From Octopus vulgaris (Eukaryota): a DNA stretch of 64,000 bases. The notes under the pieces are model-generated. The model searched no databases, was not told the DNA's origin, and saw only the letters and a list, made by a program, of their open reading frames with translations. The stretch is taken from NCBI GenBank assembly GCA_951406725.2, contig OX597826.1:20398001-20462000 (forward strand), in the 5' to 3' direction. Below are positions 20,200 through 36,347 of this stretch, piece after piece; position 1 is the first letter of the stretch, and every line of letters starts with the position of its first letter. The position numbers and the translations under genes were made by a program.

Positions 20200-21790
20200 A
20201 CAGTACTCTGGAGAATATTTTATCAAACATATGCTTGAAAATCCTCATTATCCAGTTATAAACAGAGAGAATAAAGTGAATAAATCCTATTTCCTCATCT
20301 TACAATTGTTTCATCTGAATTCGATCTCATGGGTACTGCTTTATTATGCAATAATATATGCAACTATTGTTTCATGAGGTGTCACTATTTTGTGTCGAAA
20401 TTCGCCCCTTCAGAATTATACATAAAAATCATTTGCTGTTATTACTTGAATTATCAATAATATATATTCATATCGAGTTGGACGTGTTTAAGTGGTTACA
20501 TTTGCATATTACAAAGCAAATCCCTAGTGGATTTTCTAATAGATATTTTATTTGCTTTTGTTGAAAGAAGGATGGATTGAAAAAGAATAGAAAAAACCCC
20601 AGAACAACGAATGTTTTCGCTTTTAGACAATATTATAAGTTATAGGCTTGTTTACAGTTTCTATTTCAAAAAGTATCTTTATAATAATGTTCATCAAGAG
20701 GTATATTTATTTTACCGGAATCGCAGACATATCTTTGTAATTTTATTGCAGAGGAATCTTTTTGTCTGTTACATTATAGACGTCAGCCAAATATTGGCAT
20801 TATAGAAAGGTTAAATGTTATTTACCACAGAATTCAGCGGTCACACGCACGAGCAAGGCAAATTAAGAAGACATAGATGCCATTATGATATGTCTTACCA
20901 AAATGAAAAAAAAAAAAACACAAACAGGTAAATAAATGTTTATACATACAGACTTAAACGAAAATACGTTATTCAGAAAGATGAACAAATAAAAAGAATT
21001 CTCGCTTCTTACATCCATTCTAATTGACTCGGTCAAATTTTCAAACACAGGATGGTCTGTTATAAATGAATAATGTAAAGATAATAGTACCCCAGCGGAC
21101 ACTTTCATAAAGCTATTAAAATTTAAAAGTTCCTATTGTTTCAAGAAAATTCCTTCTTATCACATGATATGTATACTCCTGATATATTTGTATAGAGGCC
21201 CGTTTAGAAACCTCCCCCAAAATTGTTTTCGGATGGCAACCGAAATAATTAGTAATTTTCTAATAGATATTTTATTTGCATTTGTTGAAAGTTTTTCCTA
21301 ACTTATAGTGGCATCTTATAATAAGTTCAGAGTGTCTATTAATCAGTTTTTTTTCCATTAGATAATAAAATACACAATACCTCTGCTAAACAAAGACTAC
21401 ACGACTTAGAATTCCCGTTCCACGGGTATGCAGTCCTTACTGCAAACAAGGAAATGTTGCATGGAATCTTCCTTTCTATCAAATGCCAGATGAGGTTAGT
21501 CAAAGAAGTATTATGTTTCTTGTTTATATCTCAAAATGATGCAAAGGGGTTACGCCATCTAAAAATCTCAATTCGTTCCTTTCAGGCCCGACAGGAGCAT
21601 TTATATACAATATTCTTACGAAAACAGTTGTTATCCAAAAGACAAGCATTTCTATTTCTAAAATTACATCTTTTAACATTATCAGTTATATTACCATTAC
21701 TAGCGTTACTGAATCTTTTTTCCATTCGATTTCTCATATTACCACCACTCCTATTATCATCATCATCATCATCATTATTATTATTATTAT
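20200..21790 (-). mobile_element. Decayed Penelope-like element (GIY-YIG end plus pseudo-LTR region)
   Basis: GIY-YIG coding relic at 21285-21790. A 37-bp direct repeat at 21255-21291 and 20531-20567 fits tandem pseudo-LTR organisation. Decayed hammerhead-like motifs at ~20362-20413 and ~20655-20702. The left boundary is approximate. Confidence 0.7.
21285..21790 (-). pseudogene. Penelope GIY-YIG endonuclease relic with N/D-rich linker
   Basis: Manual minus-strand translation: NNDDDDDDNRSGG...RCNFRNRNACLLDNNCFRKNIVYKC, then after disruptions KHNTSLTNLIWHLIERK...TAYPWNGNSKSCSLCLAEVLCIL...LINRHSELIIRCH. This matches the PLE pattern CNCR..CPL..C..VYK / LS..IW.LK / CNLCL.EK / LN.R.EL...CRH. Confidence 0.8.
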
Positions 21791-22020
21791 TCCTTCCGAC
21801 GCCGATGGACGTGTCTGAAAAGGCTCCGTGAATTTGGTACCAATTTCATTGGAAATCTACTGATAAGTTTTGATATTTTTTAATATCTTTGTAGCCAAAC
21901 CGACCGGCTTCTTGCGGAGCTCGTCGGTTGGGCGAAATTTTGCCCCATTCGGGGTGAAATTACGTTTTGAAATTTTGAACATTTGACATTTTTCAACATT
22001 TTGAATATTACAAAAAAAAC

Positions 22021-33079: not shown

Positions 33080-34500
33080 TTCAGTAGTTTTATTTTTGTA
33101 GCATGCTTACACTTCACTACTGAGCGCAGTTCTGTGTGCCTTGGGTATGTGCTGTGATTTGTTGTGATGCTCTGATGGTTACTGTATTGAAAGTGTTCTG
33201 CGTAGGATGTGTGCAGTGCCTAGTAGTGCAATTTTCTGTATATTACATGTGTTTGTAAGTCCTGGTGATTTTGTTATGTATTTGTCAGAATATTTTTTTA
33301 TCATGCCTAATGCACCTACTATGATAGGAATTGTTTCTGTTTTTAGATTCCACATTCTGGTTACCTCTATTTCCAGGTCTTTGTATTTTGAAAGTTTCTC
33401 CATTTCTTTTAGAGACACGTTGTCATCTGCTGGTATTGATACATCAATTAGAAAGCATTTTTTTTCATGATCTCTGACAACTATATCTGGTCTGTAGTCC
33501 TTAATTTCTCTATATGTGTGTATTGGCATATCCCAGAGTATGGTTGCTTTCTTGTTTTCTGTGACCTTTTCTGGTGTGTGTCTATACCATCTTTTTTCTG
33601 TTGTTATTCCATAATGTTGGCATAGCTTCCAGTGTATGTAGGTCCCAACTCTGTCGTGTCTGTGAATATATTCCTTCTTAGCCAGGACTAGGCAGCCAGA
33701 GATAATATGATTTATTGTTTCTTGTCCATCTCCACATATTCTGCAGTTACTTGTTATATTTCTTTTCATTACATGTTTTTGGTAATTTCTGGTGGGGAGA
33801 CTTTGGTCTTGTGCTGCAATTAAAAATCCTCTGTCTCTGCTCTGCGTCCTGAGCTTCTCAACCATTGCTGGGATTTTTCTTTGTCTATTTCTTTTGCATT
33901 TAGTTTAGTCCAGTATTTGCCATGAAGGGGTTTTTCTTGCTATCGTTTTATCATGGTTCGTTACTGTTTTAGTTTGGATTTCATTTGTTTTATAGCTTTT
34001 GTTGTTTCTTCTTCTTCTTCTTCTTCTTCTTCTTCTTCTTCTTCTTCTTCTTCTTCTTCTTCTTCTTCTTCTTCTTCTTCTTCTTCTTCTTCTTCTTCTT
34101 CTTCTTCTTCTTCTTCTTCTTCATATTTTTTAGGTGGTATGATTTCTTGTTTGTATTTGTCAGCTTCCTTAAATACTGAGAACAATTTTTTGTTTTGCTC
34201 GTATTTTGCCGCTATTTGTATCAGTTTTCCTTCCTTCTGAAGTAGATATTTTTGCAGTCCTATGGTGGTTATTTTATAATAGTTTTCCAGCTGTATAAGG
34301 CCTCTACCACCTTCTATACGTTGTATATATAGTCTTTCTATGTCAGATTTTGGGTGATGCATCCTAGATCCTGTCATTATTTTTCTTGTTTTCCTATCTA
34401 TTTTGGTCAGTTCATTTAGTGTCCAGTTAAGGATATTGTAGCTGTAACTTATAACTGGGACGGCTAAAGTGTTAATACCTATTATCTTGTTTTTAGCATT
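33080..34500 (-). mobile_element. R4/Dong-like LINE fragment C
   Basis: HHPKSDIERLY..GGRGL, AAQDQSL.TRNY, CRIC..ETINHIISGC, RHD, RPDIVV..IDVSIP, KYKDL; ~100-bp 3'UTR then (AAT)n; internal (GAA)n poly-Glu tract. Confidence 0.92.
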
Positions 34501-36347
34501 ATTATTATTATTATTATTATTATTATTATTATTATTATTATTATTATTATTATTATTATTATTATTATTATTATTATTATTATTATTATTATTATTATTA
34601 ATACCTATTATCTTGTTTTTAGCATTATTATTATTATTATTATTATTATTATTATTATTATTATTGTTATTAATATTATTACGAGACGTTTGCGATAAAC
34701 GAGCGATAAAAGTTTCCTCACAGAAACTGTAGCCGATTAATCTCTTTTAACCGTGTCTCTATAATAGTGCGTCTAACAATGTCTATATAATAGTGTCTTC
34801 AACAGTGTGTATATTGCAAAATATTCAGCATGGCCTCTATGATAGTGTTTTTAAATGTGTGCATACAGTAGGTTATATATATACGACGGTAGACTACACA
34901 TGCTAAACTATATAATGTATTAAACACTTTGTCAAAATACAGACAATTTGATTAATAATAGTTTGGATGATAACCCCCCTCCACCCCATCCCCAATCAGT
35001 TTGTGTTTGAATAACGACTGAAAATTACTTGCCTTCGCTTTGTCGACTAGAAATAAGAGCCAGACAAACCTCAAATTACACCCTCCGTCCTTGAATAAAA
35101 GGAAGGCCACAGTGACCAATATTCTCTGAGATTTATAGAATAACATGATGGTCATGGTTGGAAGACCGTTGATTATAGCTTTGCACGATCAGAGCGAAGC
35201 TGGATCTAAACAACAGCAGTAACAACAACAACAATTAGTATTTGCCACTAATGCTAACTACTATATTATACATCAGATAATGTAGACTTAGATACACTAT
35301 GTCTTAGTAAAATACTGTATGATTGGAACGCCTTTGATAATAGGTCTGCTGGATCAGGGCTGACCTGGGGCTAAATACCTGAAATAACTTATCAATTGCA
35401 GAATCTCTCATGAATTCAAAGCCTCACTCACCCCCGCGGCTTGTCTTCCCTCCATGAAATATTTTTTATTGTTTAGCTGAATCAATTATCTCTGTTTAAA
35501 TGATACCAAACTCCATTCTCTATGCAGCATTCCACTCGTCTATATCCTTTCAATTCAATATTCATCCAGCGCTGAAGTCATCAGCTGCAGTTTGGCACCG
35601 TTTTCTTTCAATATTGAGTTCCCCAAAGTAATTTTCATATTCTTCAAGAAGAATTTTTAACTTTCAAACTGATCCAAATTTATCCTACTAAGGAGTACAG
35701 TCCTCATATCAGACCACTGTCATTCTTGACTCTATTCACAAGGAAGTCATTCTCCAGACATCAGTGTCTGTAAATGAAGAGGGTGTGGGGTTAGCCAATA
35801 TCTTGGTCTGAAGTTCGAAAGCCAAGGAAGAACCCGTGGATATTTGATAAAACAACACAACAATCACTGATTCTTTGAATGAGGAGAGAAACTTTGCCCC
35901 TTTATCTGGACCTTATAAACAGTCTTGTTCAGTTTTTCTCTCTGAAATCCCATCTGAATGTCTGAAAATACCTTCTAAAAACCCTTCTCCTGGCCAATAA
36001 TCCGTTTTTTGTTTCTTTGAAAACCCTTCTGTTTAATTTCACCCATATCTTTATCTACACACACACACACACACACACACACACACACACACACACACAC
36101 ACACACACACACACACACACACACACGCACGCACACAAACACACACACACAGAGTTATTAGTGAGGGATTATCAACCCCGGCAAAGTACTTTATAAGCTC
36201 TCTGTTAGTCCACCAAGCTAACAAGATTGTTTAGATTATTAAAGAATTCCGCGAGTTTTTGTGGCAGGGTCCGAGTTCACTACCGTTCTATATTGTAAGT
36301 CCGTGGTTGTGCTTCTGTTAGACTGGTCTTTACACAGAGCGACACAC

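Follow-up and report, generated by a model that had tools for sequence, protein, structure and literature searches.

A 13-kb nest of non-LTR retrotransposon pieces joined by (TAA)n tracts beside a Hydra-clade Penelope-like relic in Octopus vulgaris

A 64,000-nucleotide stretch of the Octopus vulgaris genome (assembly GCA_951406725.2, contig OX597826.1, positions 20,398,001 to 20,462,000; hereafter the window, in whose coordinates all positions are given) contains a 13-kb nest of retrotransposons of the non-LTR type (those without long terminal repeats) at 21756-34681. The nest is made up of one Tx1-type element, four Dong/R4-like pieces (A to D) and a non-coding repeat present twice (X and X'), and it abuts the 5' break of a decayed Penelope-like element (PLE) of the Hydra clade. 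The seven non-LTR pieces probably accumulated as one insertion after another entered a single (TAA)n microsatellite adjoining the 5' break of this relic, and the microsatellite itself was likely never coding. A first-pass annotation of the same DNA had favoured a different origin of the microsatellite, as a run of asparagine and aspartate codons in the linker of the Penelope-like protein that acted as a landing pad for the later insertions; this is unproven, and we consider it the less probable account.

The layout was derived from a tandem-repeat scan, lists of open reading frames (ORFs), a Pfam scan and cross-alignments within the window (Table 1). The inserts span 21792-34498; the Tx1-type element lies on the plus strand, and the four Dong-like pieces and both copies of the repeat all lie on the minus strand. 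Eight TAA-type tracts join the pieces, the A/B junction being the sole one without a tract, so that the earlier description of pieces nearly all separated by (TAA)n holds for every junction but that one; the earlier inventory of pieces is likewise borne out by alignments, ORFs and Pfam matches. The inner tracts are long and pure, and both outer-edge tracts are short or decayed. By eye, lesion counts roughly rank the relic and A, with many more lesions per kb than the Tx1-type ORFs, as the oldest components, C and D as intermediate and the Tx1-type element as the youngest.

Pfam matches to RVT_1 and zf-RVT are present in the Dong-like pieces, and A, C and D carry motifs that we read as a CCHC knuckle (CxxC...H...C) followed by a PD-(D/E)xK-type endonuclease end (PD..ID). 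Piece A has many stops; B consists of the last 51 bases of the ORF, 84% identical to A, and a T-rich tail; and C retains a reverse transcriptase (RT) with an internal deletion, the knuckle, the endonuclease and a 3' untranslated region. The RT of C is nearest to R2 among solved structures, and its C-terminal half has no useful solved relative. With just 57-60% DNA similarity between them, A/B, C and D represent three families and point to separate insertions, not to tandem duplication. All Dong-like pieces are 5'-truncated, and all minus-strand pieces except B keep their 3' end and a (TAA)n tail. Counting a further copy, F (43707-44146), which is 94.5% identical to D, (TAA)n adjoins the 3' ends of A, C, D and F as well as the 5' ends of B, C, D and F. 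Copy F belongs to a second nest on the plus strand (42680-44161), composed of a Dong-like family E, (TAA)56, F and (TAA)5, with no Penelope-like DNA nearby; E is a fourth Dong-like family, with 31-37% amino-acid identity to A, C and D. The window also holds a free (TAA)27..(GAT)n tract outside the nest, at 38461-38574. Piece D includes, in addition, an in-frame (GAA)39 run encoding poly-glutamate (34006-34122), at a place that is glutamate-rich in C; this appears to be a microsatellite that grew inside a dead ORF and was not itself invaded.

Repeat X has no ORF, no match to the Dong-like pieces, no transfer RNA detected by ARAGORN and no Rfam family (low-complexity matches below the gathering score only), and it could not be tied to a partner long interspersed nuclear element (LINE) or to a named short interspersed nuclear element (SINE). 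X' corresponds to the tail-side 82 bases of X, with 92% identity over 77 bases, as expected of a 5'-truncated retrocopy. Short duplications accompany the 5' ends of X and D: 20 bases are tandemly duplicated, head to tail, at the far end of X (29720-29759), and a 24-base duplicate of the 5' end of D (34601-34624) is separated from it by (TAA)34. These may result from slippage, from a template jump, or from tail-only insertion with target duplication.

In the Tx1-type element, ORF1 (21979-23868) is open over 629 codons and has a weak CCHC knuckle (E 0.086), and ORF2 (23904-27339) encodes APE, RT and zf-RVT domains. ORF2 is broken by two frameshifts, the only ones in 5.3 kb of coding sequence that is free of in-frame stops; at the frameshift sites other contigs differ by an indel. 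The RT is L1-like, with human L1 ORF2 as the nearest solved structure, and the label Tx1, rather than L1, is presumed from architecture. More generally, the names Tx1 and Dong/R4 are provisional, being based on architecture and target and not on an RT tree. ORF2 is 67% identical over 80% to an Argonauta hians protein, most other matches reaching about 42% or less. The proteins P0275 and P0393, labelled Herbaspirillum sp. in a metagenome-assembled genome, share 68% identity with ORF2; their contig is 1.8 kb long, and they are likely to represent animal DNA that has contaminated a bacterial bin.

The 21 bases ATC(ATT)6 that precede the element (21771-21791) recur directly after it (27617-27637) and form a candidate target-site duplication. 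If they are one, the compound tract predates the element, which a single copy cannot prove. A search for a 30-base pattern taken from the 3' end of the Tx1-type element yielded 0 metagenome contigs, and protein-based scans for close copies and their flanks returned nothing but distant relatives (80 loci) or no match at all; an (AAT)n loose end at 23159 in three reads was not counted as target evidence. From its single copy the element is a possible member of an (ATT)n-targeting Tx1 family. The chances are about even that it instead lacks (ATT/TAA)n specificity and entered an enlarged A+T-rich site by loose preference: a single copy was seen, the first 40 of the 80 distant-relative loci (44% identity or less) have no ATT/TAA runs and some have CT runs, and the Tx1 microsatellite targets named in PMC4494074 are TC, TTC, TTCC and TTTC. 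Yet both ends of the element lie exactly within (ATT)n, flanked by the candidate duplication, and the same source describes many Tx1-clade families as target-specific.

In its minus-strand frame the relic reads N6 D6 NRSGG and continues into a CNFR...IVYKC stretch; the stop-to-stop frame is only 87 amino acids (aa) long (21582-21845), and the relic's lesions comprise two stops and one frameshift. Pfam gives no match to the relic, and the Pfam GIY-YIG match is also lacking in three of the four intact relatives tested. A word-index protein search with the relic found no match among 67 candidates; an exhaustive search found 169 proteins at E<=0.001, the best at E 2.7e-9. The relic and 22 matches were aligned into a profile; at E<=1e-20, 1039 of 8000 candidate proteins matched it. 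A profile of the 120 relatives listed among them matches the relic with E 1.1e-18 and 99.5 bits, compared with a shuffle maximum of 21.3; the aligned stretch, positions 534-697 of 699, contains one frameshift and a deletion. The Penelope GIY-YIG domain that the first-pass annotation had placed in frame with the tract on the minus strand is recovered by profile, although the YIG strand of its core is itself gone (9-10 codons deleted) and the VY strand is kept.

The relatives also refine the assignment to a clade. Among the listed matches of at least 650 aa (n = 75), RW[KR] is present in 65, DKT in 70 and DKG in 8; Y[IVF]G is found in 62; CxCX5C occurs in 58, a spacing of 5-7 in all 75, and CxxC before the conserved Glu likewise in all 75. 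RW[KR], DKT, CxCX5C and CxxC..E are marks of the Hydra clade as defined and aligned by Craig et al. (2021, PMC8557442), and the relatives agree with the published Hydra alignment, which places the relic in this clade. The relic has the linker motif as C-N-F-RNRNA-C, its second Cys now Phe, a CxxC before the conserved Glu (CSLCLAE) and, past the frameshift, IN...RCH, a CxH after the conserved Asn. On these sequence marks it is the endonuclease end of a Hydra-clade PLE. The strict-sense Penelope/Poseidon clade, characterised in PMC8557442 by the absence of the Cys linker motif, by CCHH in the endonuclease and by DKG in the RT, was considered and rejected, as the relic has a CxCX5C-type motif and no more than 8 of its 75 long relatives have DKG. 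A tree of 247 endonuclease rows places the relic, as a long branch, close to P0144 and P0008, a position that is not firmly supported; P0008 is a protein of the octopod Argonauta, and the best named matches of the relic are Argonauta hians proteins.

The relic copy is old. No hammerhead ribozyme was found in an Rfam search of 20000-37000, and the nearest (TA)n lies about 1.1 kb downstream of the relic. Two sequencing runs with different organism labels carry the relic at about 99% identity, and contig depth is low and flat over it (about 50-62), compared with thousands to hundreds of thousands over the Tx1-type element and A, depth not being equivalent to copy number. At 21347, the relic's frameshift, contigs of run X1 are one base short in a T run, either as a lesion that varies between samples or as a sequencing slip. 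The last coding bases of the relic and the adjoining flank recur at 20501-20567 (79% identical), 725 bases downstream of the original, and this copy gives no profile signal above shuffles; from its sequence and position it is a possible pseudo-LTR remnant or second old copy.

Was the tract that adjoins the relic ever coding? The landing-pad account predicts that intact relatives carry an Asn/Asp-rich linker between RT and endonuclease, and the scored relatives show no long tract of this kind. Linkers were scored in the 198 of 268 relatives that have both anchors, a filter outside which P0120 falls. Their median length is 11 aa; one of them (P0122, Q/S/P-rich) reaches 30 aa or more; none contains an N or D homopolymer longer than 4, the longest being 4; and a mixed N/D run of 5 or more occurs in one. 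The tract of the relic lies 30-41 codons upstream of the first Cys of the CxC motif. The block preceding the linker is 49 aa long in 132 of 133 relatives, and the tract, when forced onto the last 17 positions of this block, scores -12 bits compared with 22-43 for 150 relatives. Among octopod proteins, Hydra-1_Obim has a short linker without an N/D tract in the supplementary alignment of PMC8557442, and P0008 has a 27-aa linker that also lacks one. The poly-Asn frame of the relic counts for little as evidence of a coding tract, because the tract also reads as in-frame poly-Asn into the Dong ORF at both of the scorable 5' junctions (D and F; C is not scorable). A thumb-end motif (NM, with KSxxKKI in another frame) was tried as proof that the tract lies outside the linker and was discarded, shuffles having scored as well in 268/600 and 276/600 cases.

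A coding tract split by insertions would leave the RT half of the relic on the far side of the nest. A profile search found no Penelope-like RT, the part that carries the RWK and DKT motifs, anywhere in the window. Relatives score 293 on the thumb side (positions 380-547) and 224 on the endonuclease side (558-697), of which the relic keeps 107, so that an RT half of equal decay should reach an estimated 125-140 bits or so. On the same statistic the far flank reaches 16.8-24 bits, compared with 107 for the relic, and a frameshift-tolerant search beyond 34681 gives 16.8 bits, inside the shuffle range, compared with 99.5. With no match at the expected strength, the profile scores recognise no RT half of equal age beyond 34681, in agreement with the first-pass annotation, which recognised no clear continuation past 34680.

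Several observations weigh against serial insertion into a tract that was never coding. The frame is open from the tract to the CxC motif, and the 29 codons between them cannot be assigned to the thumb end above chance, so that the tract is not firmly placed outside the linker. P0120, a Hydra-type protein, has a low-complexity linker of about 86 aa rich in N, D, G and S, and several relatives (P0158, P0161 and P0087) have short N/D-rich linkers. The (GAA)39 run in D indicates that, at this very locus, an element's ORF can host the in-frame growth of a microsatellite. Beyond the nest, two faint thumb matches (35177-35118, 16.8 bits; 34737-34699, 9.3 bits) are colinear and on the correct strand, and one of them stops 13 codons short of the tract and shares its Asn frame. 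The nearest relatives of the relic are only 35-38% identical, and its own family was not found intact. The (TAA)n specificity of the Dong-like families is a candidate property deduced from the copies in this window. Finally, no read or contig bridges any tract within 20150-28955, and no empty site was seen; this comparison covered reads and contigs of 4 of the 24 listed runs and that interval only. Contigs of two of the runs cover the relic and end in the tract, and two raw-read runs, of which 3% was read, gave no match to the relic.

A rival account has the tract grow in place, once the Penelope-like copy had inserted, by slippage from the Asn/Asp codons of a long linker; the Dong-like elements would have exploited it afterwards, the RT half being later deleted or overwritten. 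The open frame, the proximity of the tract to the linker, the N/D-rich linkers of P0158, P0161 and P0087, the 27-aa linker of P0008, the local parallel in D and the faint matches beyond the nest all suit it. We nevertheless consider it unlikely, as it requires a linker of 30 aa or more (found in 2/199 relatives, P0120 included) and the loss of the whole RT half. The faint matches lend it little: null anchors scored as well in 54, 24, 68 and 173 of 500, in 30/120, and in 15, 6, 55 and 8 of 600 under nine settings (p 0.01-0.35), and these tests, chosen after the matches had been seen, are counted as a hint only. The 60 codons directly past the nest score at null level (173/500), and the DNA of the 16.8-bit match gives, by eye, a similar partial match in another frame, which suggests that this match is probably due to chance.

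A stronger version, in which the Asn/Asp linker was encoded as (AAT/GAT)n in the active family itself and every copy was a ready-made target for Dong and Tx1, is improbable. The in-frame reading and the linker of P0120 would agree with it, but no N/D homopolymer longer than 4 occurs in the 198 linkers, both known octopod Hydra proteins are without the tract, the RT half is missing, and the relic does not group with P0120, which ranks 99 of 246 by identity to it. The broader proposition that an octopod Hydra-clade family carries an Asn/Asp linker repeat, or the seed of one, parasitised by Dong and an ATT-seeking Tx1, is unlikely. P0120 remains, in its own right, the best lead to a true coding repeat in the Hydra clade. 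That the stack is partly an assembly artefact, with pieces mis-joined at long (TAA)n tracts, would account for the position of nearly every junction in a tract and for the lack of bridging contigs or reads within 20150-28955, but is very improbable given the proper 3' ends, the consistent polarity, the candidate 21-base duplication around the Tx1-type element, an A/B junction without a tract and a second nest built alike.

Serial insertion into a non-coding (TAA)n, the reading we favour, could have proceeded as follows. The starting point would be a (TAA/GAT)n tract adjoining the place where an old Hydra copy breaks off on its 5' side; that copy had probably either been 5'-truncated at the repeat or was later deleted up to it. 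The tract would have drawn TAA-targeting Dong-like elements. Their endonucleases would introduce a nick in (TAA)n, from which reverse transcription would be primed, and each new copy, mostly 5'-truncated, would keep (TAA)n on both sides; slippage would lengthen the tracts, and targets would multiply. The same process probably also brought in the non-coding repeat X. The Tx1-type element would be a late arrival on the opposite strand, entering the outer tract at its ATC/ATT edge and probably duplicating 21 bases of target. The poly-Asn frame of the relic could have arisen from joining at an AAT word, as at the two Dong junctions. The self-amplifying TAA sink of the first-pass annotation thus survives in so far as serial insertion into renewed (TAA)n fits the nest; its notion of a sink shared by three classes does not, the Penelope-like element being a neighbour or host and not a user.

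Table 1. Coordinates of the nest, the relic and associated features in the window.
Feature	Position	Strand	Basis or remark
Hydra-clade Penelope-like 3' relic	21275..21740	-	linker, CxCX5C motif, endonuclease; profile alignment
Five codons NRSGG between tract and profile-match start	21741..21755	-	relic's frame
Compound microsatellite (ATC)6(ATT)6	21756..21791		N6D6 in relic's frame
Near-complete Tx1-type (L1 group) element	21792..27616	+	ORFs, Pfam, structure relatives
ATC then (ATT)17	27617..27671		tandem-repeat scan, alignments
Dong/R4-like piece A, 5'-truncated	27672..28815	-	cross-alignments, motifs
Dong/R4-like piece B, ORF end and T-rich tail	28816..28950	-	cross-alignments
(TTA)n tract, ~83 units, 94% pure	28951..29196		tandem-repeat scan
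Non-coding repeat X, 563 bases	29197..29759	-	tandem-repeat scan, alignments
(TTA)24 tract	29760..29830		tandem-repeat scan
X', 82-base copy of X tail-side end	29831..29912	-	alignment
(TTG)28(TTA)19 tract	29913..30052		tandem-repeat scan
Dong/R4-like piece C, 2.8 kb	30053..32881	-	Pfam, alignments, structure relative
(TTA)67 tract	32882..33081		tandem-repeat scan
Dong/R4-like piece D, 5'-truncated	33082..34498	-	ORF, alignments
(TTA)34, 24-base duplicate of D 5' end (34601-34624), (TTA)13	34499..34681		decays at outer edge
67-base second copy of relic end and flank	20501..20567	-	79% vs 21226-21291
Far flank with two faint RT thumb profile matches	34699..35177	-	not established as Penelope-like DNA

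Elsewhere in the window, a 382-base near-perfect palindrome (40794-41175, 96.9% reverse-strand self-match) lies beside (TA)n and resembles a miniature inverted-repeat transposable element (MITE) or a foldback element. Older imperfect palindromes (70-75%) at 36348-36699, 3957-4262 and 41479-41724 are likely old MITE-like elements, the first of them adjoining a (TA)n/(TATG)n run, and 14567-15033 and 15399-15900 form a local direct duplication of about 480 bases with 87% identity.

The nest illustrates clearly how slippage and elements that target microsatellites may reinforce one another, so that an octopod-type genome swells through local stacks. In Octopus vulgaris, the LINEs with recent activity include abundant Dong-R4 and L1-Tx1 (PMC13282606, table 1). 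The locus also contributes another cephalopod Hydra relic, together with a candidate (ATT)n-targeting Tx1 family whose target is not among the published Tx1 targets consulted. If the linker reading were true, the protein sequence of one element would set the insertion site of unrelated elements, a form of transposon-on-transposon parasitism in which dead Hydra copies become self-enlarging sinks for unrelated retroelements. Neither an ATT-targeting Tx1 nor a nest seeded in a PLE linker was found in the literature searched; Kojima and Fujiwara 2004 and Repbase, outside its scope, could contain families of this sort.

Each component has known counterparts. The relic shares with the Hydra clade (Hydra-1_Obim, Hydra-2_Amil) its C-terminal endonuclease, the CxCX5C motif, the CxxC before Glu and the CxH after Asn. 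Hydra elements, that of Octopus bimaculoides among them, have (TA)n as their insertion site (PMC8557442), whereas the relic adjoins (AAT/GAT)n, keeps only the last ~155 codons, lacks the YIG strand and gave no hammerhead match; by eye, it belongs to another family than Hydra-1_Obim. R4 is described as a clade whose members mostly have a specific target and carry a restriction-like endonuclease (PMC4640811), and Dong of silkworm, mosquito and snail targets TAA repeats (PMC3812793). Like Bombyx mori Dong, DongAg and DongBg, the pieces described here combine RT, CCHC knuckle and restriction-like endonuclease in a single ORF, have (TAA)n flanks and are 5'-truncated; unlike them, three divergent families occupy one site, under a clade name that is provisional. 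The Tx1-type element resembles Kibi, Koshi and the crocodilian families in its two ORFs, its APE-RT-zinc order, its L1-like RT, its insertion in a microsatellite and its candidate target duplication. Kibi and Koshi target TC and TTC (PMC3812793) and crocodilian Tx1 families prefer TTCC or TTTC (PMC4494074), whereas the repeat here is (ATT)n and specificity for it is a candidate property. As a whole, the nest is closest in logic to the arrays of SINEU-3, which inserts sequentially in tandem (PMC4494074), and of Utopia in U2 genes (PMC4640811), where insertion is sequential and the target survives or duplicates. A self-renewing TAA sink is thus behaviour of a known kind; what sets this one apart from the SINEU-3 and Utopia arrays is that its target, a triplet repeat prone to slippage, grows, and that unrelated families share the site.

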